The notes: a model not told the origin generated them from the letters alone. Shown: positions 18,856-36,792, counted from the stretch's first letter. The stretch: DNA of 64,000 bases from Roseburia sp. CAG:303 (GCA_000437755.1 FR900145.1:50242-114241), one strand, 5' to 3'. Program-made: numbers and translations.

Positions 18856-19169
18856 TTCTATGAGAAAATTAAAATATGAACAGATTTTGAATTTGTCTGG
18901 TTTTAATAGCATGGAAAATTTTCTATAGTAAAATTGCACAAAAACGGAAGCCTGATAAGAAAATGAGAAAAATGCAGAAAAAAGTAAAAAACGGGCTTTG
19001 ATTATTGCGTGAAAGAACTGAAAAAAACATGAGAATTGAGGAAAAACAGAAGAATAGGGAGAAAAGTAAATGATAAATTGTGTCGCTATTTGGCAAAAAG
19101 TATCATTATTTTGCAAAAATTCAAAATAAGATAGTTGTAATATTTCAACAAAAAATAGAACATATCAGA

Positions 19170-19198
19170 TTGACATATATGGCGAAATTGTATATAAT
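19170..19198 (+). promoter_or_regulatory. perfect consensus sigma-70 promoter (TTGACA, 17 nt spacer, TATAAT)
   Basis: aTTGACAtatatggcgaaattgtaTATAATat, about 100 nt upstream of the 19302 operon. Confidence 0.65.
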
Positions 19199-19301
19199 AT
19201 TAACATAGTATAAGTGCGACCAGGCCTGCCTTCTTGTGTAAAATGACTAGAGAAGAGGGGTTTATTGTGCTTAAATATCAAATTAAGAGGAGGCATGTTT
19301 T

Positions 19302-22300
19302 ATGAAACGTCGAGGCCTGACAAGGGTTGTGGCATTAGCAACAGTTGTTACCATGATGTCTGCGGAATTATCTGCATATGCGACAGAGAACGTAGACACA
19401 GCTGCAGGTACATCAACTGAAGCCACAGCGGAATCAGACGAGGCAGTGACTACCGATTTATCGGATGGCGATGCGAAAGCAGTCACCGATGAAACAACGG
19501 GAACTGTCGAAAATGAAAGGCTTGAACACAATTATGAAATAGTCAGCAAGAGTTATAAGAATCCTGTCTATACTGGCGAATCGATTGTGTATTCTGCAGA
19601 AGATGTTTTTGATGCAGAATCAAGTTCAGCCTTATTGGTAACTGATAAAAAAGAAACACATGACTATGGTGCATCAGCCGTAGAATTGGGTTTGAATGAT
19701 GAGGGAGCTGTTGATGAAAGTGGAAATGCGCTTCCGGGTAAAGTTGCTAAGTTAAAATTAAATGTAGAAAAAGCAGGTGTATATGCAGTCGCTTTTGATT
19801 ATATTACAAATGACGAAGATTCCATACTTGTCCCGGAACTTTCATTATCATTAAATGGCGAGGTTCCATTTTATGAGTGTAACAGATTAATATATGAGAA
19901 TTACTGGGCACCGGCAATTGATGAAGATACCGGAAAGGCGGTTAAGGAAACTGACCGTTATGGAAATCAGATCGTTGCAAGCCCGGAAAAAGTAATGAAA
20001 TGGCAGAAGAAATATATTATGGATGCCAGCTACAGATACTCAACTCCATTAATGCTTGAGTTAAAACAGGGAGAGAATGAGATTGGACTTACCCTGACAG
20101 AAGGCTCACTTATGATTGGAAATGTTTATCTGGAAGCAGAACCGGAACTGAATGAAGTTAAGACAGGAACTTCAGCAGAAGGAAGTAACATAATTACAGC
20201 ACAGGCCGCAGAACCAGATTACAAGAATGATTCTGCAATCAGAGCTACCTGTGAGTATGACCCTGACCTGGATCCTTATGATGCAAAGACAAAGGTGCTC
20301 AATATTATTGACAGTGCTTCATTCTCAGGAGCAGGACAGAGTCTTACATACAAGTTTAATGTAGAAAAAGAAGGATATTATTATCTTGCATATCATTACC
20401 GTCAGGCAGATAAGACCGATATGCCGGTATTTGCCAACATTGTTATAGATCAGCAGCTGTTTATAACAGACGATGATAATGCAGCAACAAATGATGCTTT
20501 AACATCTTATGCATTTGATTACACAAAGTCTTTCCAGAATGAAACCATTACGGACAAGGATGGAAAGAAGATGGCAATCTACTTCTCGGCAGGAGAACAT
20601 ACTATTACAACTACGATTTCAAATGACGTTCTTCGTCAGACACTTCAGGTTGTAGATCAGATTTCCAGCGAAGTAAGTGATTTGTCACTGGAAGTATCAA
20701 AAGTGTCAAGTACAACAGATAAGTACAGAAGTATTAAGATTACAGACTATGTACCGGATATCAATGACAGACTTGACAGATGGATGAAAGAACTGACTGA
20801 AGAATATGACAGACTTGCTGCTTATTCTCCGGAAGAGAATGTCGGAGCACTTTCTTCACTGAATCTTGCGATTGAGAAACTTAAGAGTCTTGCAGAAGAA
20901 CCAAACAAGATTCCTTACCGTGTGAAAGAACTTAGTACAAGCTCCAGTTCAGTAAATCAGTATATTGCAAACTTTATTACAGATATTACAAAGAATGCGA
21001 TTTCATTAGACAGAGTTTATCTCTATCAGGATGATACAGAACTTCCGGGTAAAGCAAGCATCTTTACCAAGATCTGGGGTTCTATTTTAAGATTCCTGGC
21101 ATCTTTTGACAGTCAGGCATACTCGGTTGATAATTCAGATGATACCCATTTACAGGTATGGATTAACAGACCAAGACAGTATCTGGAAATTATTCAGAGA
21201 ATGATTGATAATGAATTTACAGCAAAGACAGGTATTAAGGTAGACTTATCCATTATGCCTGATGCACAGAAACTGATTCTGTCAAATGCGGCGGGAAATG
21301 CGCCGGATGTGGCACAGGCAGTTGATTATGCACTCCCGATTGAATTTGCAATGAGAGATGCAGCAGTAGATTTAACACAGTTTGACGGAGCAAAAGAAGT
21401 TCTGGAACAGTTTTCACCAGGTTTATTCGTTCCTTCCACAATGAACGGAGGAATTTATTCATTGCCGGAAACATTCTACTTCTGGGTACTCTTCTACAGA
21501 ACAGATATTTTAAACAAACTTGACATTGAAGTACCGGAGACAATCGAAGAAGTAGAAGAATTACTTCCGGAATTAAAGAACAGAGGTCTTGATTTCTTCT
21601 ATCCGACAGCAGGTACAACAGGTACAAGAACATTTGCGATGACCACACCATTGATTTATCAGAATGGCGGTGCTTTATATGACAAGACAGCCGGTGATAC
21701 AACACTTGACAGTGAGGCATCCATTAACGGATTTACAACATTAACAGAATTATTTACAATTTATGATATTCCACAGGAAATCACAAGTTTCTATCAGCAT
21801 TTCAGAAACGGAGATATTCCGATTGGTGTTTCAGATTACTTCATGTACAGTACTTTGATTACAGCAGCTCCTGATATTGAAAACTCATGGCAGATTTCAC
21901 TTGTTCCTGGTGTAAAAGATGAGGATGGAAACATTCAGCGTCAGACAGCCGGTGCAGCACAGTCATCCATGGTTCTTAAGAACTCAAGAAAAGCAAAAGT
22001 TGCATGTACAGAAGGTTATGGAAACAGCCAGAATGGTGAGATGGACAGACAGGAAGCTGCATGGGAGTACTTAAAGTGGTGGATGGATACAGATACTCAG
22101 GTTGAGTTCGGTACAACACTTCAGACAACATACGGTGAATCCTATATCTGGAACTCAGCAAATACAGAAGCATTCTCAAAACTTCCATGGAAGAGCCGTG
22201 ATAAGCAGATTATTCTTGAACAGATGGATAATATTCAGGAAACACCGCGTATCCCTGGTACTTATATGTTAGAGAGAGAATTAAGTAATGCATATGTAGC

Positions 22301-22481
22301 AGTTGTAACAAATGGTGGTATACTTAGAACAGAGCTTGACTCCGCAATTAAGCGAATCGACAGAGAAACTGAGAGAAAACTGAAAGAATTTGGTTATCTT
22401 GATTCGGAAGGCAATGTAATCAAAGAGTACACCGTACCGGATGTGGACTATGTAAAAGACATTATTAGTAAATTGGATTAA
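19302..22481 (+). CDS. secreted 1059-aa protein: N-terminal ~550 aa with two repeated beta-sandwich-like modules, fused to a C-terminal family-1 extracellular solute-binding (ABC SBP) domain
   Basis: Signal peptide VALATVVTMMSAELSAYA; internal repeats LKLNVEKAGVYAVAFDYITNDED / YKFNVEKEGYYYLAYHYRQADKTD; C-terminal ~470 aa SBP-like (WINRPRQY...KTGIKVDLSIMPDAQ...); RBS GAGGAGG. Confidence 0.6.
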   Translation: MKRRGLTRVVALATVVTMMSAELSAYATENVDTAAGTSTEATAESDEAVTTDLSDGDAKAVTDETTGTVENERLEHNYEIVSKSYKNPVYTGESIVYSAEDVFDAESSSALLVTDKKETHDYGASAVELGLNDEGAVDESGNALPGKVAKLKLNVEKAGVYAVAFDYITNDEDSILVPELSLSLNGEVPFYECNRLIYENYWAPAIDEDTGKAVKETDRYGNQIVASPEKVMKWQKKYIMDASYRYSTPLMLELKQGENEIGLTLTEGSLMIGNVYLEAEPELNEVKTGTSAEGSNIITAQAAEPDYKNDSAIRATCEYDPDLDPYDAKTKVLNIIDSASFSGAGQSLTYKFNVEKEGYYYLAYHYRQADKTDMPVFANIVIDQQLFITDDDNAATNDALTSYAFDYTKSFQNETITDKDGKKMAIYFSAGEHTITTTISNDVLRQTLQVVDQISSEVSDLSLEVSKVSSTTDKYRSIKITDYVPDINDRLDRWMKELTEEYDRLAAYSPEENVGALSSLNLAIEKLKSLAEEPNKIPYRVKELSTSSSSVNQYIANFITDITKNAISLDRVYLYQDDTELPGKASIFTKIWGSILRFLASFDSQAYSVDNSDDTHLQVWINRPRQYLEIIQRMIDNEFTAKTGIKVDLSIMPDAQKLILSNAAGNAPDVAQAVDYALPIEFAMRDAAVDLTQFDGAKEVLEQFSPGLFVPSTMNGGIYSLPETFYFWVLFYRTDILNKLDIEVPETIEEVEELLPELKNRGLDFFYPTAGTTGTRTFAMTTPLIYQNGGALYDKTAGDTTLDSEASINGFTTLTELFTIYDIPQEITSFYQHFRNGDIPIGVSDYFMYSTLITAAPDIENSWQISLVPGVKDEDGNIQRQTAGAAQSSMVLKNSRKAKVACTEGYGNSQNGEMDRQEAAWEYLKWWMDTDTQVEFGTTLQTTYGESYIWNSANTEAFSKLPWKSRDKQIILEQMDNIQETPRIPGTYMLERELSNAYVAVVTNGGILRTELDSAIKRIDRETERKLKEFGYLDSEGNVIKEYTVPDVDYVKDIISKLD

Positions 22482-22502
22482 GGATAGGAGGAAATTTATA
22501 AA

Positions 22503-23381
22503 ATGAAAACTGGTAAAAAATATCCCTTTTTGTTCCTGCTTCCATATCTGTTAGTCTTTACGGTATTCATTATCCTGCCGATTTGCGTAGCAGTAGTATT
22601 ATCATTTACGGACTTTAATACCGTACAGATGCCTAATTTTGTAGGCTTTAACAACTATATTAATCTGGCAACACAGGACTCCATCTTCATGCAGTATGTA
22701 TTACCGAATACGGTTACATTTGCACTGATTGTAGGACCTGGCGGATATTGCTTGTCATTCCTGCTTGCATGGGCAATTGCACAGCTGACAAGAGTACCGA
22801 GAACAATATTAGCACTTATTTTCTATTCACCTTCACTGACAACTGGTGTTGCCATGAACGTACTTTGGAAAATCATTTTCTCAGGTGATGCAACAGGTTA
22901 TTTAAATGCTATCTGTATTAATCTGGGAATTCTGAATGAGCCGAGAACATGGCTGATTTCAGACCTCCTTCCGATTATGATTATCATCGGACTGTGGAGT
23001 AGTGCGGGTGTTGGATTCCTTGCCATGTTAGCAGGTATTATGAATGCAGATGAGGAATTATATGAAGCGGGTGCAATCGATGGAATTAAGAACAGATTCC
23101 AGCAGATGATTTACATCACAATCCCGACAATGAAAGCACAGATGTTATTCGGTGCCGTTATGGCAATCGTAAATACATTTAATAACGGTGCAATCGGTGT
23201 TACCCTTTCAGGTACAAACCCGACGCCTGGATATGCAGGACAGTTAATTGTAAACCATATTGATGACTACGGATTTATCCGTTATGAAATGGGTTATGCA
23301 GCAGCAGTATCAGTTGTACTTCTTCTGATTATTACACTGTTCTCAAAGGTTGCAAGTTCATTATTCACAGAGAAAGAATAG
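22503..23381 (+). CDS. carbohydrate ABC transporter permease (MalF/UgpA-type)
   Basis: 6 TM; EAA loop [21 protein letters not shown]. Confidence 0.85.
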
Positions 23382-23397
23382 AAAGGAGAGCGAAAAA

Positions 23398-24270
23398 ATG
23401 GCCGGATATAAAGGAAATGGTATCAATCCATCAAAGTTTGACCGCAGTCAGATTAAAATCTATATAATTTTATTACCATTGGCAGTGTTTATGCTCTTCC
23501 CAATTGTATTTATTTTCTGTCATGCGTTTAAGCCACCAGCTGAGTTGTTTGCGTTCCCACCGAGATTCTATGTTGTAAACCCAACATTGGATAACTTTTC
23601 GGAACTGTTGAAATCAGCTCGTAATGCGGGTGTTCCATTGAGCCGATATGTAATGAACAGTGTGTTTGTTACAGCGGTTGTCTGCGTTGCAAATATTATT
23701 ATGTCAACAATGGCAGCGTTTGCATTATCAAAGATGAAGTTTAAAACAAGAGGACTTATTTTCAATATCAATCAGAAGGCAATGATGTTCGTGCCTGCAG
23801 CAGTATTGATTCCTAGATACTTAATCATGAATGGTATGGGTATCCTGAATACATACTGGGCACATATCCTTCCACTGATTGCAATGCCTGTCAGCCTGTT
23901 CCTGATTAAACAGTTCGTTGACGGTGTACCGGATGCATTGATTGAAGCTGCATCCATTGATGGTGCTTCACCATTCAGAATTTACTGGTCGGTTATCCTT
24001 CCACTGGTAAAACCTGCGATTGCAACAGGTGTCATCCTTGCATTTAACCAGGCTTGGCCATATGTGGAAAGTTCAAACAACTTTGTAAATACAGATAGTA
24101 TGAAGACACTTTCATTCTACATGACAACCCTTGCCAATGCAAACAATGTTGTACAGGGCCAGGGTGTTGCAGCAGCAGCCTCCTTAATCATGTTTGTACC
24201 TCAGTTAATTTTATTCATCTTCTGTCAGAGAGACGTTATGAATACAATGGCAAGTTCAGGTATCAAATAA
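23398..24270 (+). CDS. carbohydrate ABC transporter permease (MalG/UgpE-type)
   Basis: EAA loop EAASIDGASPFRIYWSVILP; RBS aaaggagag; ORF track begins 23350 but ATG 23398 has an RBS. Confidence 0.85.
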   Translation: MAGYKGNGINPSKFDRSQIKIYIILLPLAVFMLFPIVFIFCHAFKPPAELFAFPPRFYVVNPTLDNFSELLKSARNAGVPLSRYVMNSVFVTAVVCVANIIMSTMAAFALSKMKFKTRGLIFNINQKAMMFVPAAVLIPRYLIMNGMGILNTYWAHILPLIAMPVSLFLIKQFVDGVPDALIEAASIDGASPFRIYWSVILPLVKPAIATGVILAFNQAWPYVESSNNFVNTDSMKTLSFYMTTLANANNVVQGQGVAAAASLIMFVPQLILFIFCQRDVMNTMASSGIK

Positions 24271-24307
24271 TAATATAAAGTTATTTAGAATATTGAAGGA
24301 GGTCAAT

Positions 24308-26413
24308 ATGAAGAAAATTTATAAAAGAGCCATAGCATTTCTGTTTGCTGTTTTATTTATTGCTTTTGAAGTGGCACAGCCGGTTATATCTTTTGCAAAA
24401 GTACCATATAAGACATATACGCAGAATGGATATGGAGAATTAGTGGAAACGCAGACAGCGTACACACCATATTCCACAATTACAAAGATTCAGTCCAATA
24501 TCGAAGGGGAAGATGACTTTGAGTTAAAGAAACCGGAAGATATTAAGATTGACTCAAAAGGTAACTTATTTATCGCAGATACAGGCAACCACCGCGTGGT
24601 TGTCTGCGATTCAACCGGTACACTGATTACCATTATCGGTGAAGAGGATTTAACAGCTCCTACCGGAATCTTTGTCCGTGAAGAAGAAGACGGAACAGAA
24701 CTCGTCTATGTAGCAGATCAGCAGTATGTTGGCAAAAAAGAAGGTGCTGTTGTTGTATACGATATGGACGGTAATCTGAAAGCAACTTATAAGAAACCGG
24801 ATGATGTTCTGTACGGTAGCAGTACAAAGTATCAGCCACAGAAACTGGTTGTAGATAAAGGTGGAAATATGTATATTTCTGCAAAGGGTAATACAAATGG
24901 TGTTATCCAGATCTCTCCAAAGAACGGAGGAACTTTCCTCGGATACTTTGCAACAAATACAGCATCCGTAAATATTACAACAATCTTCTTAAACCTGATA
25001 TTATCAGATGAACAGAAGGCAAGAAGATCCATCACACCGTCTTCCGTTACAAACATCGGAATTGATGAGAAAGGTCTTATCTATACAGTAACATCTTCTG
25101 ACAGTGTGGCAACACCGGTAAAGAAGTTAAACATTGCAGGTGGTAACCTTTTACAGTGTGATGTATATCCAAGCAACAGCCTTGCAATATGCGTAGGAAA
25201 GCATGGAAGTATCTTTGTTGGTACAAAGAATGGTTATATTTATGAATATACCAGTGAAGGTTCACTGCTCTTTGCCTTAGGTGCAAAAGATGACGGTTCA
25301 CAGTACAGAATTGGTCTTTTCCAGAGCCTTTCAGCAGTAGAAGTAGATCAGAATGATAATATGTATGTACTTGATACCGAAGTAAGTACGATTCATATCT
25401 TTAAGCCAACCGAATTTACAACTCTCGTACATGATTCCCTCGACTATTTTGAAGAAGGAAAGTACGAAGAAAGTAAAGCTCCATTGGAGCAGGTAATCCA
25501 GATGAACGGTCTGTTCGATTATGCAAACATGGCTATGGGACGTGCTTTATATAATGAAGAGAATTATTCAGATGCATTATCCTACTATCGTCTGGCAAAG
25601 AATAAAGACGGTTATTCTGACTCTTTCTGGGAACTCAGAAATATCTGGCTTAACAAGTACGTTATGCATATGATTATTGCAATCGTAGCAGTTGTAATTG
25701 TTGTTAAGATTTTAAAGAAACTTGACAGAAGCAAGGGAATCTTTAATCCAATCAGAAAAGCAACAGAAAGCTTCAGAAGCAAGCAGCTTGTAAAACAGAT
25801 TTTCTACGGATTTAAGTATATGCGTCATCCGTTTGATGGTACCTATGGTGTTAAGAGAGAAGGAATGTGTTCTTATCTCGCAACATTCATTGTCGGTGTC
25901 ATTGGCATACTGGTATTTGTAATCAATAAATACTTCTGCGGATTCCTTGTAAAATATGTCAGGGACGGAAGATACAACATTGCAACAGATATTATTGAAA
26001 TCGTAGTAGTTATGCTGTTCGCAGCACTTGTAACATACTTGATTTGTACAATTAATGATGGTGAAGCAAGATTTAAGGAAATATTAGTTGGTTATGTATA
26101 TTCATTCATGCCATACATTGTACTCCAGCCATTCATCTACTTATTCGGAATGGTAGTTACCTACAATGAAATGTTTGTTATTGAATTTGCAAATATCATC
26201 ATGTTTACATGGATTGTCATACTTATTTTCCTGACAATCAAAGAAATTAACAACTATTCAGTCAAAGAAACGTTTAAGGTAATTGGTCTTACAATATTTG
26301 CAGCATTTGTGTTTGTATTAATGGCATTTGTTATTTACATTCTCTTTGCTCAGATTATCGGATTCTTTACCTCATTCGGCGGAGAGGTGGTGCATCGAAT
26401 TGGCGGCAGGTAA
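24308..26413 (+). CDS. NHL-repeat beta-propeller / TPR / Yip1-domain polytopic membrane protein
   Basis: Signal/TM at N-terminus; NHL-like repeats (DIKIDSKGNLFIADTGNHRVVVCDSTG, VYVADQQY..., MYVLDTEVSTIHIF); TPR-like EEGKYEESKAPLEQ...YYRLAKNKDG; C-terminal ~230 aa with 5-6 TM resembling Yip1. Confidence 0.55.
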   Translation: MKKIYKRAIAFLFAVLFIAFEVAQPVISFAKVPYKTYTQNGYGELVETQTAYTPYSTITKIQSNIEGEDDFELKKPEDIKIDSKGNLFIADTGNHRVVVCDSTGTLITIIGEEDLTAPTGIFVREEEDGTELVYVADQQYVGKKEGAVVVYDMDGNLKATYKKPDDVLYGSSTKYQPQKLVVDKGGNMYISAKGNTNGVIQISPKNGGTFLGYFATNTASVNITTIFLNLILSDEQKARRSITPSSVTNIGIDEKGLIYTVTSSDSVATPVKKLNIAGGNLLQCDVYPSNSLAICVGKHGSIFVGTKNGYIYEYTSEGSLLFALGAKDDGSQYRIGLFQSLSAVEVDQNDNMYVLDTEVSTIHIFKPTEFTTLVHDSLDYFEEGKYEESKAPLEQVIQMNGLFDYANMAMGRALYNEENYSDALSYYRLAKNKDGYSDSFWELRNIWLNKYVMHMIIAIVAVVIVVKILKKLDRSKGIFNPIRKATESFRSKQLVKQIFYGFKYMRHPFDGTYGVKREGMCSYLATFIVGVIGILVFVINKYFCGFLVKYVRDGRYNIATDIIEIVVVMLFAALVTYLICTINDGEARFKEILVGYVYSFMPYIVLQPFIYLFGMVVTYNEMFVIEFANIIMFTWIVILIFLTIKEINNYSVKETFKVIGLTIFAAFVFVLMAFVIYILFAQIIGFFTSFGGEVVHRIGGR

Positions 26414-29015
26414 ACTTAAAAGATTGCTCAGCATGGGACTCGTGTGTTTAATGCTGACTCCGATTGTATCATTTGCAACAAATGATACAGCAGGAGATAC
26501 CCAGGCAGAAGAAACAAATGCAGACGACACAGCTGCAAGTGATAATAAGACAACTGCAAATACAGCTGCAGCACCGGTTGAAAAGAATGGTGTTGTAAAG
26601 CAGACAACAGGGGTCAGCTTTATTGACAAGATCAATTCAGCCTCTATCACAGTGGGTGGAGAATTATCACAGGAAAAAGTGGATCAGGCATTAAATAACC
26701 TGATTGCTTCTTCCGCAGACAGACGGAAAGCTGCTTATAAATTAGTAACAAAGCAGCCGGAAGCAGATTCCACACAGACAGAGAAAGCATTTGATTCCAG
26801 CAAGGTCATTGATGGACATATGTATGTCTGCGAATCAGAAGATTATGAATTATATGTAAAACCGTCAAACTTATCAATCTTATTGAGAGATAAGAAGACA
26901 GGAACATTATTAAGATCAACGCTTGAAGATGAAGAAGCATATGTAAGAAGCAGCCAGACTCCTGCATTTAACCGAATTACTTCAGGAGTAACCATTATGC
27001 CGATTAAGTACGATCCGAAATCAGAATCACGTTCCGGTATGTACGATAAGACAAACAGCCAGGTTTCTTCCAGAGATGCAGAGATTACCTATGATAAGAC
27101 AACAAATGGATTTACTGCACATCTGAACTTTAACAATAAGCAGAATGATGTATCATTAAAAGGACTTAATATTCAGTTTGATGTTGTAGTAACCCTGGAT
27201 GATATGGGACTCCATGTATCTATTCCGGATGATACCATCAAAGAAAATCTGGAAGATGGTAAACTTGGTTACATGATGGGGGATGTATATCTTTTCCCAT
27301 TATTAGGATATACCGATCGTGGTGACACAGACGGATATATGATTTTACCGGATGGAAATGGTATTATCGTAAATTTCCAGGATTTCTATCAGGATGGTAC
27401 TGCAAAATATAAGAGCGGATATTCTGCAAGAGTTTACGGTGCAGATGTCAGCCTCGATACGATCACAACAGATGATTCCAGTAAGGAAAGAGAAGACTTT
27501 AACGATTCCGAAGATGTCATTGCTCCATATTTCGGTATGGTACATGATTATTCTGCATTCAATGACGGAAGTCATGAAAAGGATATCGCAGTACTCGGTT
27601 TTGTAACAAGCGGTGAATATGCATGCACAATCAAAGGTAACTTCAATGGTGTAAACTCATCCTTTGAAAACTATGTATTTGCCAATGCTACTTACAGAGA
27701 AGTATATCAGCAGCCGGTTGATAATGCTTCCAACAATGCCATGACAGAAGTAACGGATATTGCCCTTCAGAATTTACAGATTGATTTCCTGCTTGCAAGT
27801 GGCGACGAAGCAAATTATTCCGGGCTTGCCAATAAGACAAGGGAACTTCTGAAAGATAAGGGTATTATCACAGAGGCAAAAGATCTGGATTATGATGTAA
27901 GAATCGATTTCCTGGGTGTTGATAAAGAAAACTTCCTTCTTTTCAGAAGAAATGTTGTAGCAACAACCATTGAAAATATCGAAACAATTATATCAAAACT
28001 CCAGGAAAACGGTGTTGAAGATATCGCAGCTTATTATGACGGCTGGCAGAAAGATGGAATGTACAATCTGCCGAATACAGACTTCAAAGTAGACAGTGAT
28101 CTCGGTGGAAACAGTGCATTAAAGAAGCTGGCAGATAAGTATGATGGTACATCCGTAAGCCTCTCCCTGATTCAGGATATGCTTACAATTAATGATACCA
28201 CTTCAAATTCAACCTTTACAGCAATGAAGCTGATTAATAAGAGAACATACTCTTATACCGACAGATTCTTAAACGTGTATAAGACATTTAAGTATCTGAC
28301 ACCTTCCAAGACAAATGAATATCTTAAGACATTTGCAGATAATGTACAGAAGGGTGGAATTAGTAATATTTCCTTATCCGGATTTACAGATACTTTATCA
28401 AGTTATTCATTAAACAGCAAAAAGTATACAAGAAAAGATGCAATGGATTATTACACCAGTGCAATGGATGAAGTAATTGGCAAAGGAATGAATGTATCCA
28501 TGGAAGAACCGTCCATGTATTTCTGGAAATATACAGATGAATATCTGGATATGCCAATCAGCTCATCCATGTATGTGTACACTTCCAGTGAAATTCCTTT
28601 CCTTACATCAGTACTCAAAGGAAGTATGAAGGTTTATTCCGAATATGTGAACTTTGAAGCTAATCAGACAGAATTCTTCTTGAAGTTAATTGAAACAGGT
28701 GTTTACCCATCTTTCTTATTAACTTATGAGAGTCCTACAGTCCTTCAGTATACAAACTCAAGCTGGGATTATTCCTCAGATTATGAGCAGTATATCAGTG
28801 TTATTTCAGAGTTCAACCAGGATTTGAAAGCAGTAAATGAGAAGACAGAAGGAGCCTCTATTGTAAAACACCAGATGAATTACGATGGTAATAACAATCT
28901 GACAAAGGTAACTTACAGTAACGGTACGGTTGTTTATGTGAACTACTCAGAAGACGCTGTTTCAGCTGATGGAGAAACTATCGATGGATTATCATATAAG
29001 GTAGGTGAAGAATAA
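26400..29015 (+). CDS. large secreted protein of unknown function (~870 aa; possibly DUF5696-like)
   Basis: Proposed TTG start at 26400 gives signal peptide (M)AAGKLKRLLSMGLVCLMLTPIVSFA, preceded by GGAGAGGTGG; overlaps upstream stop by 14 nt; alternative ATG 26433 lacks an RBS. Confidence 0.5.
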   Translation: MAAGKLKRLLSMGLVCLMLTPIVSFATNDTAGDTQAEETNADDTAASDNKTTANTAAAPVEKNGVVKQTTGVSFIDKINSASITVGGELSQEKVDQALNNLIASSADRRKAAYKLVTKQPEADSTQTEKAFDSSKVIDGHMYVCESEDYELYVKPSNLSILLRDKKTGTLLRSTLEDEEAYVRSSQTPAFNRITSGVTIMPIKYDPKSESRSGMYDKTNSQVSSRDAEITYDKTTNGFTAHLNFNNKQNDVSLKGLNIQFDVVVTLDDMGLHVSIPDDTIKENLEDGKLGYMMGDVYLFPLLGYTDRGDTDGYMILPDGNGIIVNFQDFYQDGTAKYKSGYSARVYGADVSLDTITTDDSSKEREDFNDSEDVIAPYFGMVHDYSAFNDGSHEKDIAVLGFVTSGEYACTIKGNFNGVNSSFENYVFANATYREVYQQPVDNASNNAMTEVTDIALQNLQIDFLLASGDEANYSGLANKTRELLKDKGIITEAKDLDYDVRIDFLGVDKENFLLFRRNVVATTIENIETIISKLQENGVEDIAAYYDGWQKDGMYNLPNTDFKVDSDLGGNSALKKLADKYDGTSVSLSLIQDMLTINDTTSNSTFTAMKLINKRTYSYTDRFLNVYKTFKYLTPSKTNEYLKTFADNVQKGGISNISLSGFTDTLSSYSLNSKKYTRKDAMDYYTSAMDEVIGKGMNVSMEEPSMYFWKYTDEYLDMPISSSMYVYTSSEIPFLTSVLKGSMKVYSEYVNFEANQTEFFLKLIETGVYPSFLLTYESPTVLQYTNSSWDYSSDYEQYISVISEFNQDLKAVNEKTEGASIVKHQMNYDGNNNLTKVTYSNGTVVYVNYSEDAVSADGETIDGLSYKVGEE

Positions 29016-30223
29016 TGTCAACTAAAACAGAAGAAATTAAAGAAGAAATCAAAGAGCAGCCGAAAAAGGAAAAGGCTCCGAAGGAAGAAAAGAAAGATAC
29101 AAAGAAGAAAAAGAAAACCTATACCGTAGACGAACTCTTGAGCCAGAATGAGAGAATGGAATTATTCGACGAGTATGGCAGAAGGAAGAAAATCAAGGTA
29201 AAGGTAAAAGAAGGCAAGTTAAAGAAGCGTGAAAACAGAATGGGTTATGTGTTCATGATTCCATATGTTGCCGGTGCATTAATCTGTCTGCTGTATCCGT
29301 TAATCATAGCGATTATCTACGCATTCAGTAATGTAGTTGTAAAAACAAATACCGTTACCTTTAATGGTATCCAGAACTTTGCAAGTGTACTTGATAAGAA
29401 CCCTGAGCTGATTACCCAGCTCGGTACACTGGCATTCAAGATGCTTCTTGGTGTACCACTTATCGTAGTATTTGCACTGCTTATGGCAATGATGCTGAAT
29501 ATGAAACTGCCGGGAAAAGGTGTTTACAGAACGATCTTCTTCCTGCCGGTTATCGTAGTCAGCGGTCCGGTTATGACCATGATCAATTCCGAAAACAGTA
29601 GTATTCAGGCAGTTGATATGACAGTCATTGAATCGGTAATACAGAGTTTACTTCCAGCCTGGATTTCAGATTCTGTATTGTGGATTTTTAGCAATATCAT
29701 CATGTTATTATGGTATTCCGGTGTACAGATCCTGATTTTCCTTGCAGCATTGCAGAAGATTGATACTTCACTTTATGAAGCTGCAAAGATCGACGGTGGT
29801 TCTAACTGGGAATGTTTCTGGAAGATTACACTTCCAACCATTAAGCCAATGCTTCTGTTAAATGCGATTTATACCGTTGTATTCCTGTCACAGGATGCAA
29901 TCATCAGCCCGCTGATTGATACAATCAAGGCAGCATTACAGAGTGTCATGGGTTATGGATATGCCGCAGCATTTGCATGGATGTATGCAATCGTGGTACT
30001 GCTCTTCGTTGGTATTGTTGCTTTATGTTTCCTTCCAAAGAAGGATTTGTATGAGAAGCAGATCAAGAAGAACAAGCAGCTTGAAAAGAAGACTAGAAAG
30101 AAACTTGCAAAACATCAGAAGCAGTTAATCAAGAACCAGATTAAGCTTCAGAAAGCAATTCAGAAGGAAGAAAAGATGAAACTTGCAGGAAAAGACCTGG
30201 GAGGAGGTAATTACGATGGCTGA
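29015..30223 (+). CDS. ABC transporter permease (MalF-type) with Lys/Glu-rich N-terminal and coiled-coil C-terminal cytoplasmic extensions
   Basis: EAA loop EAAKIDGGSNWECFWKITLP; N-terminal KEEIKEQPKKEKAPKEEKKDTKKKKK; C-terminal KQIKKNKQLEKKTRKKLAKHQKQLIKNQIKLQKAIQKEEK; ATGA overlap with upstream stop. Confidence 0.75.
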   Translation: MSTKTEEIKEEIKEQPKKEKAPKEEKKDTKKKKKTYTVDELLSQNERMELFDEYGRRKKIKVKVKEGKLKKRENRMGYVFMIPYVAGALICLLYPLIIAIIYAFSNVVVKTNTVTFNGIQNFASVLDKNPELITQLGTLAFKMLLGVPLIVVFALLMAMMLNMKLPGKGVYRTIFFLPVIVVSGPVMTMINSENSSIQAVDMTVIESVIQSLLPAWISDSVLWIFSNIIMLLWYSGVQILIFLAALQKIDTSLYEAAKIDGGSNWECFWKITLPTIKPMLLLNAIYTVVFLSQDAIISPLIDTIKAALQSVMGYGYAAAFAWMYAIVVLLFVGIVALCFLPKKDLYEKQIKKNKQLEKKTRKKLAKHQKQLIKNQIKLQKAIQKEEKMKLAGKDLGGGNYDG

Positions 30224-31241
30224 TGCAGTAAAAGAAGTTAAACCAAAGAAGGAAAAAGCAGAAAAAGTTAAAGTAAAAAAAGCCAAGACTCCTATGTCGA
30301 AGGAAAAGCTTCACAAGATAATGTTTGGTACGAAAGATGACATGGGCCTCTTGAAAAAAATTGTGGTTTATGTTATACTTACCTGTGTTGGATTTGTGTT
30401 TGTATATCCATTATTAAAGGTATTAAGTACAAGTTTCATGTCATTGTCAGATTTGTTTGACTCATCCATCAACTGGATTCCGTCAAAGCTCAGATTTGAG
30501 AACTACAGGACAACCATGAAAGCCATGAATTACTGGAAATCATTAAAAGACAGCTTTATTATATCCGGTCTTCCTACTTTATGTCAGGTAGTTTCCTGTT
30601 CCATCGTAGGATACGGACTTGCAAGATATAATTTTAAAGGAAAGAACTTTATCATGGGATTGATTATCTTCTCATTTGTTCTTCCTAGTTCACTTTTAAT
30701 GACAACACAGTATCAGATGTATACATCTTTTGGATGGACAGGTAAACTGATGACATTTATTTTCCCTGCTATTCTGGCAAATGGATTTAAGTCACAGTTG
30801 TTTATCCTGATCTGCTGGTCATTCTTCAAGCAGATTCCGCCGGTATTAAATGAAGCGGCTGCTATTGATGGTGCCGGACATTTTAAATCATTCTTTAAGA
30901 TTGCACTTCCATCAGCAGCAGGAGCATTAATCGTAGTATTAATCTTCTCCTTCGTATGGTACTGGAATGAACAGTATTTATCACAGCTTTACTTATACAG
31001 TAAGGTTAAGGAAAACAATATTTATACACCGTTGATTAATCAGCTGTCAATCTTTGATTCGGCGTTCGACAGTGCATATAACAGTAATACTGGTTCTGGT
31101 TCGTCAAATTCAGCGACGATCAATGATGCTTACCGAATGGCAGCAACGATATTAACTATTTTACCGTTATTAATTATTTATGCAGTTTTACAGAAGCAGT
31201 TCGTAGAAAGTGTGGACAGAGCTGGTATCACTGGTGAATAA
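30216..31241 (+). CDS. ABC transporter permease (MalG-type) with Lys-rich N-terminal extension
   Basis: EAA loop EAAAIDGAGHFKSFFKIALP; GGGAGGAGG RBS before ATG 30216; N-terminal KEVKPKKEKAEKVKVKKAK. Confidence 0.75.
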   Translation: MADAVKEVKPKKEKAEKVKVKKAKTPMSKEKLHKIMFGTKDDMGLLKKIVVYVILTCVGFVFVYPLLKVLSTSFMSLSDLFDSSINWIPSKLRFENYRTTMKAMNYWKSLKDSFIISGLPTLCQVVSCSIVGYGLARYNFKGKNFIMGLIIFSFVLPSSLLMTTQYQMYTSFGWTGKLMTFIFPAILANGFKSQLFILICWSFFKQIPPVLNEAAAIDGAGHFKSFFKIALPSAAGALIVVLIFSFVWYWNEQYLSQLYLYSKVKENNIYTPLINQLSIFDSAFDSAYNSNTGSGSSNSATINDAYRMAATILTILPLLIIYAVLQKQFVESVDRAGITGE

Positions 31242-31372
31242 TACCAATATATTATGCAGGAAATTCTCCGGAATTTCCTGTATGATTTGAATTTATCATA
31301 TGGGTTTAAGTATGCCTGGCATACTGCCAATAAATAAAAAAAGGGAAAAATTAATAAAAAGGAGGATGTCTT

Positions 31373-32875
31373 ATGTCAAAGAACATAAAGAAAGTGCTTT
31401 GCTTAACTCTTGCAGTAGCTATGACAGGAAGCCTGTTTACAGCATGTGGTAAGAAAGAAGAGAAGAAGCAGGTTGCAACTCTGTCACCAATGACCGAGGA
31501 TGAAATCACTCTTACTTACCAGTTCTGGGAAGATGGTCCTATTGTAGACTCTCTGAATAAAGAATGGGCAAAGAAATACCCTAACATCACAGTAAAACCA
31601 AGTGAGGTACTTGTTACAGACAACAATACAAACTTAACGAACTATCTGGGAACAGATAACATGCCGGACGTATTCTGGGTACTTGGTACACCGGATTTCG
31701 CAATCACAAATGGTATGTTAACTAACATGGATGGTATGTGGAGTGCAGACCCTGATACAAAGAATGTTATCGGTGGTATCAATGAATTCCAGCTTGGATA
31801 TCTTGGAACAGACGGCAAGTGGACAACACCTGTTAAGTTCTTCCCAACAGAAGCATGGTTAAACATGAACTACTTCACAACACATAATGCAGATATGCCA
31901 TCTACAGACTGGACATTTGAAGATATGGAATCTTTAGCAGAAAGCCTTACAACTGGTGATGGCCAGGGATGGGGTGTATCTGAAGCTGTTACAGTTATCA
32001 CATGGTATCCTATCGCATCTGATGCAGATTGTATCGGTGAGTTCGGTTGGAATGGTAAAGAATTTGACCTGACTAACTGGGCTGACGGTGTGGAAATTGA
32101 AAAAGGATGGATCGACAAAGGTTACAAAGCTCCTGCTGTTATCGAAGGAACAGACAACCAGTTTCCTCAGGATTTAGGTATGGTTGCTATGCGTCTTGAT
32201 AACTGGTGGTGCTGGGAAAGATATTGGGACAAAGATGAAATGTATACACGTCATGTATACTGGGTTCCATATGTACTCCCTCATACCGAAGACAATTCAA
32301 GCAGTGATACATATCTTGCTACCATGGACTTTGGTGGTATTTATGCTGACTGTGCTTATCCTCGTGAAGCATACGAAGTTCTTAAATACTTTACATGGGG
32401 TCCGGAAGGATGGACATACAAACTTTCCAAATATGATGAAATCGTTGCTGTTGGTGCAGAAGGTGACGGAGCTTCCGTATCAGGTTTAGTTCCTGGACCT
32501 ATCAATAACTGCCCAATCACAACAGATGATACTATCTGGGAAGAATACCAGAAGAAACATCCAACAACTCTTGCTGGTGGTGATACAGAAGGTAAAGATC
32601 AGTATGGTATTGATAGAGCTCCTTACTTTGATGCATTCTTTGAAACCGTTAAGAATTCTAAGTGGACATGCTATGGTTCCGCTCAGATTCCTGGATTCGA
32701 TACATGGTTAGCTAACAACTACAACTCAGCTACTATGTACGATGGTTTCGAAGGTGTAGAAAAATGGGTATTTGAAGGTGGCGGAGATCCTGCAGATAAA
32801 GTTGCAGACTTAACAGAATCAGCTAACCAGACAAATCAGGACTACATCAACCAGATTAAGTCAGTATTAGAGTAA
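31373..32875 (+). CDS. extracellular solute-binding lipoprotein (ABC transporter SBP, family 1)
   Basis: Lipobox LFTAC at residues 21-25; Trp-rich SBP fold; AAGGAGGA RBS. Confidence 0.75.
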   Translation: MSKNIKKVLCLTLAVAMTGSLFTACGKKEEKKQVATLSPMTEDEITLTYQFWEDGPIVDSLNKEWAKKYPNITVKPSEVLVTDNNTNLTNYLGTDNMPDVFWVLGTPDFAITNGMLTNMDGMWSADPDTKNVIGGINEFQLGYLGTDGKWTTPVKFFPTEAWLNMNYFTTHNADMPSTDWTFEDMESLAESLTTGDGQGWGVSEAVTVITWYPIASDADCIGEFGWNGKEFDLTNWADGVEIEKGWIDKGYKAPAVIEGTDNQFPQDLGMVAMRLDNWWCWERYWDKDEMYTRHVYWVPYVLPHTEDNSSSDTYLATMDFGGIYADCAYPREAYEVLKYFTWGPEGWTYKLSKYDEIVAVGAEGDGASVSGLVPGPINNCPITTDDTIWEEYQKKHPTTLAGGDTEGKDQYGIDRAPYFDAFFETVKNSKWTCYGSAQIPGFDTWLANNYNSATMYDGFEGVEKWVFEGGGDPADKVADLTESANQTNQDYINQIKSVLE

Positions 32876-32901
32876 TAAAAACAGATATAATGTAATCCCT
32901 T

Positions 32902-32934
32902 CCTCCCGCAGGTTTTCCGGCGGGAGGTTTTCTA
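32902..32934 (+). terminator. rho-independent terminator closing the 19302-32875 operon
   Basis: cctcccgc-aggttttccg-gcgggagg followed by ttttc. Confidence 0.7.
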
Positions 32935-33045: not shown

Positions 33046-36000
33046 ATGGCAATAGAAGAAATATCACGGATTCCTGTCGGAGATATGATATTACGATATG
33101 AACAGGAAACCGATTATGCTACGGCTGGTTTTTCTGTTATTCCGGCAGATATGGATGGCCAAGACAATGCAGAGAAATTCTACAGAATCAATTCACTTGT
33201 GCAGATGAAACTGGTGGGTGATATGTATCCGAACTGTTACGGACACGGTTCGTCCATGCGTAACAGCGAATCTGCCAACAGGCTGGATTATAAGAGTCAG
33301 GTAGTGGAAGAAACAGAAGATGCCACCATCGTTAAGACATTCTTAGAAGATGCGAGAGGATACCGTGTCACGCATATTGTGACTTATTATCAGGGTGATG
33401 AAAGCTTTGAGATGAAGAACATCGTGGAAAATGTGTCCGGACAGGATATCACGATGGAGATGCTCTCCAGCTTTGAACTGGGGAATATATCCCCATTCTT
33501 AACAGGGGACGGACCAGAAAAACTGCTGGTGCATCGTCTGAGAAGTAAATGGAGCCATGAAGGAAGATTATCGACGGAAACTGTGGAAGATCTGCAATTA
33601 GAACCGTCCTGGTCCACATGGTCCGTGTCCAGTGAAAGATTTGGACAGACAGGTTCGATGCCGGTGAAGAAGTTCTTTCCTTTTGTAGCGATAGAAGATA
33701 CCGAGAATGAAGTTCTCTGGGGTGTGCAGCTTGCGCACGAGGCATCCTGGCAGATGGAAGTGTACCGTCAGGACGATGCATTGCATATTTCCGGCGGCAT
33801 CGCAGACCGTGAATTTGGACACTGGATGAAGGTGCTTCATCCTGGAGAATCATTTGAAACTCCGACTGCCATTGTCAGTGTATGCCATGGCGGCGGGATT
33901 GACAGAATCTGTCACAGACTGACACAGGCGGCAGAGAAATATCTGGATGATATTCCGGAGAGCGAACAACATCTTCCAATCATCTTTAATGAATATTGTA
34001 CGACCTGGGGCTGCCCTTCCCATGAGAATATATCAGGAATTATAAATGCCATCAAGGATAGGGATTTTGAATATTTTGTCATCGACTGTGGCTGGTTCAA
34101 AGAGGACGGTGTGCCGTGGGATATCAGCATGGGAGATTATAATATATCCCCAACCCTGTTCCCGGAAGGTCTGAAGAAAACAGTGGATATGATAAAAGCT
34201 GCCGGTATGAAGCCGGGTATCTGGTTTGAGATTGATAATATCGGAAGTGCCGCAAAAGCTTATCATAATACGGAACATCAGTTAAAGAGGGATGGGTATC
34301 CGATTACAACATACAGCAGAAGATTCTGGGATATGACCGATCCGTGGGTAACTGAATATCTGACAGAGAAAGTAATCAAAACATTAAACACTTACGGATT
34401 TGAATATATGAAGATGGATTACAATGATACCATCGGCATCGGATGTGACGGAAGTGAGTCGTTAGGTGAAGGATTGCGTAAGAATATGGAAGCATCCGTT
34501 GATTTTGTGCGGAAAGTTCTTGCAGAAGTACCTGGAATCATTCTGGAGAATTGTGCATCCGGCGGACATAAGCTGGAGCCGCTGATGATGAGCTTATGCT
34601 CGATGGCATCATTTTCCGATGCACATGAATGTGAGGAGATCCCGGTAATTGCAGCAAATCTTCACCGGGCAATCCTGCCACGTCAGAGCCAGATCTGGGC
34701 TGTTATCAGAAAGACGGATAGTGTAAAGAGAATTGCCTATTCCATTGCAAATACCTTCCTTGGAAGAATGTGTCTGTCCGGCGATGTAACGGAACTGACG
34801 GAGGCACAGTGGAAAGCGATCGATGATGGTATGGCATTTTATAAGAAAATCGTCCCGATTATCAGGAAGGGATATACTTACCATGTAAGTCCGAAGATTG
34901 GCAGCGAACGTCATCTGAAGGGCTGGCAGGGTATTGTAAGAACCGGAGAGAATGGACAGGCATATGTCCTTATCCATACCTTCCACGGCGGCTATCCGGA
35001 AGTCATAGAGATACCGCTTCCGGATGACTGCCCGGATCAGATCATTGCACAGTATTCGGATGAAACGGCAGATGTGATCGTGGAAAACCGGGTATTAAAA
35101 TTAAAGACGGCGGAAGATATGCGTGCAGTGGCAGTATTATTAGCTCCGCAGGAAAGGAAAGATAAAAGAAACATGAACAAGACAGGATTTTATATCAGAC
35201 CATATACCGTAAACTGGAATAACGAAGAGTCAGACAGTTTACATCTGGAATACAGTTACGATAAGGAAGACTGGTATGCATTTAACGGAGATAACGGTAT
35301 TCTCTTTGCACAGTCAGGATCTAAGAGAATGGCAAAGCCGCAGATCGTAAAGGACGGAGATTCCTTCCGTATCTATGCCATGGATGCAGTGGACAACGAT
35401 AAGGTATTCTGCTATGAATCAAAGGATCTGATTACCTTCGGGGAAGAAAAAGTGGCTGAAAGAGCAGAAACACCGGAATATACGGCAGAATCAGCGATTG
35501 TAGAGATTACACAGGCACAGCTTGAAAACTTGCAGAAGAGATTCGGAAAGCCGGAAGAAGTGGTGATCGATCAGATCGAGGAAATCTGTGTGGAAGTAAA
35601 ACAGGGAGAAACTCCGGAATTACCGGAAACCGTGCAGATTGTATATTCCAATGGTGAAAAAGATACAAAGAAGGTTACCTGGGGAGAAGTTGATACAGAA
35701 TCCGCAGGAGAAAAGACAGTAACAGGAACAATTTACGAACATCAGTATACAAACCCGATCATTTATCACAGAGCCGATCCGTTTATCTATAAACATACGG
35801 ACGGATATTACTATTTCACCGGTTCCCATACCGATATGGAGCATAATCTGGTCGGAAAATATCAGTACCGCAATATTACGCTCCGTCGTGCAAAGACACT
35901 CGAAGGACTGGCAGATAATTCCGGACTTTATGAGGAGAGAGTGGTATATCAGAGAGAGCCGCTTCCGGGCGATAACAGCCCTCATATCTGGGCACCTGAG

Positions 36001-36792
36001 ATTCACTTCGTGCGGGGAAAATGGTACATCTACTTTACAACCGTAATCGATGAAAATGAGATGTGGTCCATCCGTCCACACGTTCTGGAATGTGCTGATG
36101 CCGATCCGTTTAAGGGAGAATGGGTAAATCTTGGAAGAGTACAGACAACCACGAATGACAGCATTGCATTTACTGATTTCTCACTTGACCATACCGTATT
36201 TGAGCATAACGGTGAATTATATATGTTCTGGCCGGAGAAACATCCTGCTGATTCCGTTATCTATGTAGCAAAGATGGTAAATCCGTGGACGATTGACTCT
36301 GACAGAATCTGTGCCGTAGTAGCACCGGAATACAACTGGGAAAGACATGGATTCCCGGTATGTGAAGGTCCGGCAGTATTGCAAAGAAATGGAAAAATCT
36401 TCCTGGTATATTCAGCAGCAGGAACGGATGCATTATACTGCCTGGGAATGTGTACCGCCGATGAGAATGCCGATTTACTGGATCCGGCATCCTGGACGAA
36501 ATCAGAACATCCGGTATTCCAGAGTTCCAGAAAGAACGGACAGTTCGGACCGGGACACAACAGCTTCACAAAAGATGAAGAAGGTCATGATGTTATGGTA
36601 TACCATGCACGTCAGGAAGAGAGATACCTTGTGGACGAAGGCTATCAGCCATTATATGATGCAGGAAGAAATGCAACACTTATGAGAATTTACTGGAATG
36701 AAGACGGTACACCGAACTTCTCCGTACCGATTCCGAGCGGAAAGGGTCACGACATTCCGACCGAATTCACAGCAAAAGTAATTGTAAAATAA
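33046..36792 (+). CDS. multidomain glycoside hydrolase: GH36-like (alpha-galactosidase fold) + Ig-like (Big_2) + GH43-like C-terminal domain; no signal peptide
   Basis: FVIDCGWFKEDG, YMKMDYND and ENCASGGHKLEP match GH36 D-G-W / KxD / SGGG motifs; Big_2-like VQIVYSNGEKDTKKVTWGEV; GH43-like YHRADPFIYKHTDGYYYFTGS...WAPEIHFVRGKWYIYFT. Confidence 0.55.
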   Translation: MAIEEISRIPVGDMILRYEQETDYATAGFSVIPADMDGQDNAEKFYRINSLVQMKLVGDMYPNCYGHGSSMRNSESANRLDYKSQVVEETEDATIVKTFLEDARGYRVTHIVTYYQGDESFEMKNIVENVSGQDITMEMLSSFELGNISPFLTGDGPEKLLVHRLRSKWSHEGRLSTETVEDLQLEPSWSTWSVSSERFGQTGSMPVKKFFPFVAIEDTENEVLWGVQLAHEASWQMEVYRQDDALHISGGIADREFGHWMKVLHPGESFETPTAIVSVCHGGGIDRICHRLTQAAEKYLDDIPESEQHLPIIFNEYCTTWGCPSHENISGIINAIKDRDFEYFVIDCGWFKEDGVPWDISMGDYNISPTLFPEGLKKTVDMIKAAGMKPGIWFEIDNIGSAAKAYHNTEHQLKRDGYPITTYSRRFWDMTDPWVTEYLTEKVIKTLNTYGFEYMKMDYNDTIGIGCDGSESLGEGLRKNMEASVDFVRKVLAEVPGIILENCASGGHKLEPLMMSLCSMASFSDAHECEEIPVIAANLHRAILPRQSQIWAVIRKTDSVKRIAYSIANTFLGRMCLSGDVTELTEAQWKAIDDGMAFYKKIVPIIRKGYTYHVSPKIGSERHLKGWQGIVRTGENGQAYVLIHTFHGGYPEVIEIPLPDDCPDQIIAQYSDETADVIVENRVLKLKTAEDMRAVAVLLAPQERKDKRNMNKTGFYIRPYTVNWNNEESDSLHLEYSYDKEDWYAFNGDNGILFAQSGSKRMAKPQIVKDGDSFRIYAMDAVDNDKVFCYESKDLITFGEEKVAERAETPEYTAESAIVEITQAQLENLQKRFGKPEEVVIDQIEEICVEVKQGETPELPETVQIVYSNGEKDTKKVTWGEVDTESAGEKTVTGTIYEHQYTNPIIYHRADPFIYKHTDGYYYFTGSHTDMEHNLVGKYQYRNITLRRAKTLEGLADNSGLYEERVVYQREPLPGDNSPHIWAPEIHFVRGKWYIYFTTVIDENEMWSIRPHVLECADADPFKGEWVNLGRVQTTTNDSIAFTDFSLDHTVFEHNGELYMFWPEKHPADSVIYVAKMVNPWTIDSDRICAVVAPEYNWERHGFPVCEGPAVLQRNGKIFLVYSAAGTDALYCLGMCTADENADLLDPASWTKSEHPVFQSSRKNGQFGPGHNSFTKDEEGHDVMVYHARQEERYLVDEGYQPLYDAGRNATLMRIYWNEDGTPNFSVPIPSGKGHDIPTEFTAKVIVK

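Follow-up and report, generated by a model that had tools for sequence, protein, structure and literature searches.

The eight + strand open reading frames (ORFs) g1 to g8 that occupy positions 19302-32875 of a 64,000-nt stretch of DNA from Roseburia sp. CAG:303 (GCA_000437755.1 FR900145.1:50242-114241; referred to as the window in the following) combine two permease pairs of ATP-binding cassette (ABC) importer type with two solute-binding proteins (SBPs), a Yip1-family membrane protein (g4) and a large secreted DUF5696 protein (g5), and the question arises what purpose such a gene set could serve. From our point of view, the answer that stands a slightly better than even chance of being correct is that the operon represents a conserved, substrate-adaptable glycan-uptake module, in which two CUT1 channels and two SBPs would work together with the accessory proteins g4 and g5. 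The features on which this proposal is built are, from 5' to 3':

19170..19198, + strand: promoter-like site TTGACA-17-TATAAT, 12/12 consensus, ~100 nt 5' of g1
19302..22481, + strand: g1, giant SBP of 1059 aa, SBP_bac_1 at aa 630-933
22503..23381, + strand: g2, MalF/UgpA-like permease of pair 1, BPD_transp_1 24.8 bits, NCBIfam GlcT-like 2e-13
23398..24270, + strand: g3, MalG/UgpE-like permease of pair 1, BPD_transp_1 6.5e-13, UgpE-like 2.4e-27
24308..26413, + strand: g4, membrane protein, NHL 3.8e-10, Yip1 7.6e-7, TPR_16 0.0019
26400..29015, + strand: g5, secreted DUF5696 protein of 871 aa from TTG 26400, Pfam DUF5696 (PF18952) over its full length
29015..30223, + strand: g6, MalF-like permease of pair 2, BPD_transp_1 4.3e-10, EAA loop at aa 255
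30216..31241, + strand: g7, MalG-like permease of pair 2, BPD_transp_1 6.1e-14, EAA loop at aa 213
31373..32875, + strand: g8, SBP partner of the second importer, a 500-aa lipoprotein with lipobox FTAC, Lmo0181 match
32902..32933, + strand: intrinsic terminator, hairpin 32902-32927 with an 8-bp GC-rich stem, followed by TTTTCT

The central observation is the conservation of this gene order. For the related loci, one genome per species was scanned and the window's proteins were mapped onto the best 80 of the 344 stretches that encode a DUF5696 relative; another 81, distant loci were obtained when a profile built around remote DUF5696 members was run against metagenome contigs. All 161 loci were annotated with hidden Markov models made from the window's proteins and their homologues, only loci with room for the whole order (62 related, 44 distant) were used for the order counts, and domains were called with Pfam and NCBIfam, with phmmer for g8. 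The order big SBP, MalF-like, MalG-like, NHL/TPR/Yip1, DUF5696, MalF-like, MalG-like was found in 62/62 related and 37/44 distant loci; among the distant loci that deviate, the two halves are swapped in two or three cases and the first cassette is absent in a few. The Yip1 gene lies immediately 5' of the DUF5696 gene in 74/74 related and 60/60 distant loci (134/134), a permease pair follows the DUF5696 gene in 74/74 and 64/64 (138/138), and none of the sampled loci carries DUF5696 away from Yip1 and a permease pair. The one-strand order from g1 to g8 was seen wherever the related contig reached far enough, down to 35% g5 identity and in Lachnospiraceae, Clostridiaceae and metagenome-assembled genomes labelled Oscillospiraceae, and the gene of a DUF5696 protein with 25% identity (P0046) stands in an equivalent arrangement. 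Two further observations concern copy number: one related locus (L016) has a second copy of the module that starts directly downstream (18753-22056), and the assembly PJTO01 contributes two loci, L092 and L094.

Since the synteny is kept, chance adjacency of the eight genes is excluded. On this point, which an earlier note on this DNA had named as a test that could refute its reading, the result is strongly positive and the eight genes form one conserved unit. The module is, however, not restricted to Lachnospiraceae and Ruminococcaceae, across which the note had proposed to look for it, and was found beside many different carbohydrate-active enzymes (CAZymes). The note had also known of no experimental work on the neighbourhood, and in the paper library that was searched in full text no mention of DUF5696 or of this gene set came up; papers on Yip1 with an ABC transporter, on Lachnospiraceae and on arabinan likewise contained nothing on the module.

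Within the window, the genes are tightly packed. Gaps of 21, 16 and 37 nt separate g1-g2, g2-g3 and g3-g4, g4 and g5 overlap by 14 nt provided that g5 starts at TTG 26400, g5 and g6 overlap by 1 nt (TAATG at 29015), g6 and g7 by 8 nt at 30216, and the only longer gap, of 131 nt between g7 and g8, immediately precedes the last gene. The g3 ORF is open from 23350, with a GGAG ribosome-binding site in front of ATG 23398. The site at 19170 is the sole perfect sigma-70 consensus in the window (chance expectation 0.02) and probably functions as the promoter, while the terminator hairpin has a folding energy of -19.7 kcal/mol (z -3.7) with a U tract (UUUUCU) on its 3' side. As such, the same-strand operon with its perfect promoter motif and strong terminator, as first described, was recovered in full, and so was the tight packing, apart from a minor slip: the junction at 29015 had been given as ATGA. 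An Rfam search of the leader and the intergenic regions matched no family.

With regard to transport, BPD_transp_1 in g2, g3, g6 and g7 bears out the two MalFG permease pairs that had been proposed, although the score of g2 is slightly below the 26.4 cut-off. NCBIfam gave UgpA/UgpE/MalF/MalG-like matches among the permeases and no equivalog-level match of the operon to any named transporter. The EAA coupling loop is canonical (EAA-x-DG) in g3 (EAASIDG at aa 183), g6 and g7 and occurs as the variant YEAGAIDG in g2, a protein that shows 65-97% identity across the related loci. With an extracytoplasmic SBP of SBP_bac_1/MalE-like fold also encoded, the transport part is predicted to be an ordinary CUT1-type importer (TC 3.A.1.1), and the EAA loops, the SBPs and the catabolic neighbours identify import, rather than export, as the predicted direction. 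The two pairs have diverged (g6 is 25% identical to g2, g7 20% to g3) and are old paralogues. Pair 2 differs from pair 1, which has none, by long Lys-rich cytoplasmic extensions (29015-29260, 30040-30223 and 30216-30340); in g6 these are N- and C-terminal and hold 27 K/R in the first 80 aa and 19 in the last 60.

No nucleotide-binding domain was found among the eight operon genes, as the earlier note had stated, and no MalK-type gene in the window. The sole ABC ATPase that the window does encode (49400-50350) is part of an unrelated ABC-2/ABC_transp_aux system at 49400-54340, in which it is accompanied by an ABC-2 permease and by ABC_transp_aux/DUF7088 and DUF4340 proteins. Motif search and tblastn placed an ATPase inside the eight genes in 0/80 related loci. 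A MalK-like ATPase match is present in 18/81 distant loci (L081 among them), often immediately 5' of the big SBP gene, and the Pfam-scanned flanking ORFs of distant loci gave ABC_tran, OB_MalK and TOBE_2. The missing ATPase, at first listed as non-canonical, is thus nothing unusual: Firmicute sugar ABC importers commonly rely on an MsmX/MsmK-type ATPase encoded elsewhere. MsmX of Bacillus subtilis and related ATPases each power more than one sugar importer, and AraNPQ, which takes up arabino-oligosaccharides, is among them (PMC5730181, PMC7658222). Because Firmicutes share ATPases in this way, an operon without one is ordinary.

The two SBPs of the operon are unrelated to each other in sequence. 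In g1, a signal peptide and a disordered acidic linker of ~50 aa are followed by beta-sandwiches at ~90-280 and ~295-440, a helical bundle at 445-563 and a CUT1-type SBP at 615-1059, and the two sandwiches, the bundle and the SBP are also seen in its structure model (mean predicted local distance difference test, pLDDT, 80.8). The giant secreted protein with a C-terminal SBP fold that the first reading had described is therefore real: SBP_bac_1 lies in the C-terminal 40% in Pfam, and the SBP is preceded by ~550 extra residues. CBM_35 was matched in 8/31 g1 orthologues (best E 2.9e-8), and the beta-sandwiches would fit carbohydrate-binding modules (CBMs) of CBM35-like type. The last gene, g8, encodes a classical lipoprotein SBP, as proposed. 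A Pfam scan of g8 gave no match, whereas phmmer related it to the cycloalternan SBP Lmo0181 of Listeria (1.2e-10), and in 68 related loci a g8 orthologue sits behind permease pair 2. Among solved proteins, the nearest relatives of the two SBPs are binders of beta-1,2-glucooligosaccharides, in the case of g1, and of cycloalternan.

The membrane protein g4 turned out to have the NHL-TPR-Yip1 architecture suggested for it, with NHL and Yip1 confirmed by Pfam and TPR weakly so. Its N-terminal signal or anchor is followed by an NHL propeller-like part and TPR-like helices at aa ~30-450, and a hydropathy scan then placed a transmembrane (TM) helix at 451-469, a Lys/Arg-rich loop at 470-520 (13 K/R versus 4 D/E) and a five-TM Yip1 domain at 521-681. 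According to this predicted topology, the ectodomain with NHL and TPR-like regions (~420 residues) lies outside the membrane. The Yip1 match (PF04893, aa 527-678) reaches 29.6 bits against a cut-off of 28.6, and one NHL repeat is above threshold (39.7 bits), with weak TEN_NHL and SSL_N matches in addition. We found 551 full-length homologues of g4, and Yip1 is annotated in most of the 120 listed; in ~25 distant loci the protein is split into an NHL+TPR gene and an adjacent Yip1 gene.

The protein encoded by g5, in which no domain had been recognised at first, matches Pfam DUF5696 at E 3.6e-148 (495 bits, where 25.6 would suffice, covering positions 3-612 of the 612 in the model), a family for which we collected 5533 representatives of 50%-identity clusters (E <= 1e-3). 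A signal peptide and a disordered linker of ~40 aa precede a (beta/alpha)8 barrel that is flanked by one beta-sandwich on its N-terminal and another on its C-terminal side, and the AlphaFold2 model (pLDDT 84, predicted template modelling score 0.85) shows the predicted three-domain fold of alpha-glycosidases of the glycoside hydrolase (GH) families GH129 and GH101. The fold is common to g5, to NagBb (5wzn), an alpha-N-acetylgalactosaminidase of family GH129, and to the GH129-like 3,6-anhydro-D-galactosidase DagB (5opq), at 10-14% sequence identity, with GH101, GH36, GH31 and GH13 lower in the ranking. A profile comparison against the PDB gave NagBb at E 1.5 only, at the DGW strand, which is marginal and supports the fold match only, and no match to the GH129 and GH101 Pfam models was obtained even at E 10.

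Across 269 diverse DUF5696 members, the conserved positions are the PDGxG loop of the N-domain (D318, 96%), R678, P733-F734, G741, N751 at a barrel strand end and L761 (both 100%), and E765 (98% acidic). No pair of barrel-face carboxylates is conserved in this set (D593 61%, with Asn in 21%; D713 61%; E753 26%), while D593, D713 and E753 are kept in 25-27/27 sequences of the window's own subfamily. D664 was considered as a GH129/GH36-like nucleophile and rejected, as this position is D, N, E or S even among close orthologues. The catalytic pairs of NagBb (D435/E478) and DagB (D486/E517) are not recognisably conserved in DUF5696; it has to be considered, however, that catalytic residues differ even between these two enzymes, since DagB uses an Asp of its N-terminal domain and does not conserve the acid/base of NagBb (PMC5698469). 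For this reason g5 could still be an active enzyme.

An indication of the substrate comes from the genes around the module, the nearest of which begins 171 nt 3' of the operon:

33046..36792, + strand: adjacent cytoplasmic glycosidase of 1248 aa, GH36-like, Big_4 and GH43, separately transcribed

Its product carries no signal peptide and no TM segment, matches Pfam Melibiase (1e-27) and Glyco_hydro_43 (1e-62), and its GH43 domain is closest to 9nxj (6.5e-91) and to the exo-1,5-alpha-L-arabinofuranosidases 3akf (1.3e-88) and 5m8b. A GH36-like/GH43 gene follows the operon, fused or split, in L001-L015 and L067; the GH36-like, Big_4 and GH43 parts form a single fusion in the window and two adjacent genes in L001, L002, L006, L007, L010 and L013. 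The flanks of the related loci further contain cytoplasmic GH43 (49 loci), a Laminin_G_3 lipoprotein (42), GH51 alpha-L-arabinofuranosidase (41), an ArsR-type regulator (35), secreted GH43+GH43_C (26), an AraB-like FGGY kinase (8), GH27 (8) and an AraD-like class II aldolase (7). Because GH43, GH51, AraB-like and AraD-like proteins recur in these flanks, the substrate in the window is most likely an arabinose-rich plant glycan, e.g. arabinan or arabinogalactan side chains. The distant modules adjoin very different genes (GH26, GH10, GH18, GH13, GH16, GH3, GH32, GH38, GH53, PF10091 and sulfatase), which argues that the core itself is substrate-agnostic. In one distant locus (L081, 12815-15406), the module is followed by a MalK-type ATPase gene and two genes of PF10091 ('Glycoamylase'), which we take to be the GH144 beta-1,2-glucanase family.

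Taken together, one can imagine that the CBM-bearing SBP g1 catches glycan chains at the cell surface, that g4 keeps g1 and g5, which are secreted and carry no anchor, next to the channels, that g5 binds or trims the chain and passes it to the SBPs, and that oligosaccharides then pass through the two channels, both of which would be powered by a MalK/MsmK-type ATPase encoded elsewhere in the genome. Cytoplasmic glycosidases would complete the breakdown, a role that we propose for the GH36-like/GH43 product. The role of g4 suggests itself because g1 and g5 have a signal peptide and a long disordered linker and neither a lipobox nor a sortase motif, yet need to be held at the membrane. Capture or processing of a glycan, one of two functions offered in the earlier note, fits both the CBM35-like modules of g1 and the GH fold of DUF5696. 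Several points weigh against this proposal. That g4 and g5 would physically contact the permeases is deduced from gene linkage, and no gene fusion among DUF5696, Yip1, permeases and SBPs occurs in the 161 loci. The ATPase lies outside the window, so that its powering of the channels is inferred, neither SBP is close to a known SBP specific for arabino-oligosaccharides, no regulator stands next to the operon in the window, and the barrel acids D593, D713, E753, E758 and E777 are well conserved in the window subfamily, so that g5 could be an active enzyme here.

The last point leads to a different explanation, namely that DUF5696 stands for a new family of glycoside hydrolases, related to GH129 and GH101 and active outside the cell, and is in each module the surface depolymerase or debrancher, for which g4 would be a mere anchor, here acting on arabinan or arabinogalactan and with an active site that diverges between subfamilies. 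The near-invariant PDGxG loop, the invariant N751 and the variable catalytic residues of NagBb and DagB speak for this idea, which we nevertheless consider tentative and, on balance, unlikely: the family as a whole lacks a barrel carboxylate pair and a fixed residue at the D664 position as well as any match to the GH129 and GH101 models, its fold belongs to alpha-glycosidase clans and yet the modules adjoin beta-mannanase, xylanase and chitinase genes, and the constant company of Yip1 and a permease pair would be unusual for a free-standing glycosidase. Since the core adjoins such different CAZymes and since the linkage of DUF5696 to Yip1 and the permeases is perfect, general accessory subunits are, in our opinion, somewhat more likely for g4 and g5 than a substrate-specific depolymerase. 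A stronger version of the accessory idea is that both are obligate structural subunits of an unrecognised class of ABC glycan importers, in which two permease pairs and two SBPs build one surface machine, a counterpart of Sus in Gram-positive bacteria, and DUF5696 is a largely non-catalytic subunit that derives from a glycosidase and handles the chain, much as CD98hc does not act as an enzyme for LAT1; we regard this as conceivable but rather doubtful.

It is also conceivable that g4 and g5 together act outside the cell as a sensor or gate, which would detect polymer at the surface and regulate activity or assembly of the two importers instead of handling substrate. NHL propellers act as extracellular sensors in other bacterial membrane proteins, e.g. 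PknD, and the conserved pocket residues of DUF5696 are constant whatever CAZymes are encoded nearby. In addition, YknW, the one Yip1 protein of bacteria to have been studied, assists an ABC transporter as an accessory subunit (PMC4887032). However, a domain for signalling output (kinase, cyclase or helix-turn-helix) is missing from g4, and ordinary regulators are present, of ArsR type in the 35 related loci named above and of LacI, GntR, AraC and IclR types in distant ones, which makes such a function improbable. Finally, a Bac_transf sugar transferase gene 4 kb upstream and glycosyltransferase genes elsewhere in the window could be taken to mean that the module serves to export or assemble a polymer of the cell surface, the second function offered in the earlier note, or that unrelated transporters came together by chance. 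Both are hardly credible. BPD_transp_1 permeases of type I importer architecture with EAA loops and two SBP partners define binding-protein-dependent importers, the genes that recur beside the module encode catabolic GHs and other proteins of sugar catabolism and not glycosyltransferases, the Bac_transf gene is not conserved beside the module, and the synteny argues against coincidence. We hence keep to the accessory glycan-uptake role for g4 and g5.

Two further regions accompany the operon:

15335-16273, 16459-17748 and 17963-18787, + strand: three upstream surface-protein genes, a signal peptide in each
31251..31349, + strand: structured g7/g8 intergenic region, hairpin 31251-31286, GGGTTTAAG, hairpin 31310-31324, TGCCAATAAATAAAAAAAGGGAAAA

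The upstream proteins, two with an SPKTG sortase signal and one with a C-terminal TM segment, are paralogues that share a domain of ~190 aa (GAWW..YKEYAVVRGDNWGWGG..), which could be an undescribed glycan-binding domain. The first gene matches the C-terminal part of the Laminin_G_3 lipoprotein from the 42 loci, the third is kept 5' of g1 in L001, L003 and L005, and the trio may thus belong to the locus. In the g7/g8 region, an element at the place equivalent to window 31242-31372 occurs in L001-L008 and L013-L015. The first hairpin is stable (-21.4 kcal/mol, z -5.85). The second has conserved flanks, kept in relatives as GGGTTTAA and TGCCAATAAA..AAAAAAAGGGAAAA, and compensatory stem substitutions in L001-L008 and L013; it has neither a U tract nor an Rfam match and may be an mRNA processing or stabiliser element 5' of the second SBP gene. 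Further away, at 3686-6385 and 13 kb upstream, lies a rhamnogalacturonan lyase gene of polysaccharide lyase family 11 (PL11), amid housekeeping genes such as those for sigma-70, Lgt and glutamate synthase; it shows no link to the operon in the related loci and fits a pectin-foraging lifestyle. In the RNA-seq study of Clostridium phytofermentans ISDg, the supplements contain no NHL or Yip1 annotation and the sole GH51 gene, Cphy1169, has no operon of this kind next to it (PMC4230839); the carrier found is Lachnoclostridium phytofermentans KNHs2131 (L054). Further culturable carriers are Clostridium sp. KNHs205 (L022), Lachnospiraceae bacterium 48-33 (L005) and Anaeromicropila populeti.

Compared with known systems, the operon is most similar to AraNPQ-MsmX of B. 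subtilis and to the MsmK and MsiK systems of Streptococcus pneumoniae and Streptomyces, which likewise consist of an SBP and a MalF/MalG-like pair with no ATPase gene in the operon, and AraNPQ takes up alpha-1,5-arabino-oligosaccharides (PMC5730181, PMC7658222). It differs from these in having two permease pairs and two unrelated SBPs in one operon and, always, g4 and g5. In the Gram-positive polysaccharide utilisation loci (gpPULs) of Roseburia and Eubacterium rectale, a transporter is encoded beside glycan-degrading enzymes, and several paralogous loci with different CAZymes exist per genome. The GH36-like/GH43 gene provides such co-localisation here, and multiple copies of the module per genome are the pattern expected of paralogous utilisation loci, while the regulator typical of gpPULs has no counterpart beside the operon. 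To our knowledge, a constant pair of Yip1 and DUF5696 proteins is no part of the gpPUL idea.

A precedent for g4 is YknWXYZ of Bacillus, where a Yip1-family membrane protein is encoded and works with an ABC transporter; YknYZ is, however, a MacB-type exporter against a peptide toxin, and YknW as described is set apart by the lack of an NHL/TPR ectodomain (PMC4887032). DUF5696, in turn, is secreted and genetically tied to a transporter, unlike NagBb and DagB. A glycosidase-fold ectodomain that serves as a non-catalytic transporter subunit is known from CD98hc (4F2hc)-LAT1, which is eukaryotic, disulfide-linked and has SLC7 proteins as partners; the barrel fold is common to CD98hc and DUF5696, with no evidence of homology beyond it. 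Sus-like systems of Bacteroidetes are alike in logic only, as they bind glycans at the surface, where they also have a protein of GH fold (SusG, of GH13), possess a dedicated import channel and occur in many copies that differ in their CAZymes. Here there is no SusC/SusD and no outer membrane, ABC permeases import, and Pfam scans of the window and the loci revealed no TonB-dependent transporter or SusD family. For the fixed combination in which two permease pairs occur with a giant SBP that bears CBMs, an ectodomain protein anchored by Yip1 and a GH129-fold protein, our literature search gave no described precedent.

Overall, ABC importers with binding proteins are the main glycan uptake route in Gram-positive gut and soil bacteria, and the standard view of such an importer comprises an SBP, two permeases and an ATPase, to which the module adds a fixed protein pair and a second permease pair. 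What is surprising is not the transporter itself but how strictly and how widely its two uncharacterised partners are conserved. If g4 and g5 are needed for uptake, they would fill a gap in the picture of polymer capture by Firmicutes, which have no outer membrane, and DUF5696 would in that case represent a new family of glycosidases or else a pseudo-enzyme bound to a transporter. The module could also be used to mark loci for glycan uptake in genomes of Lachnospiraceae, butyrate producers that are relevant to dietary fibre.

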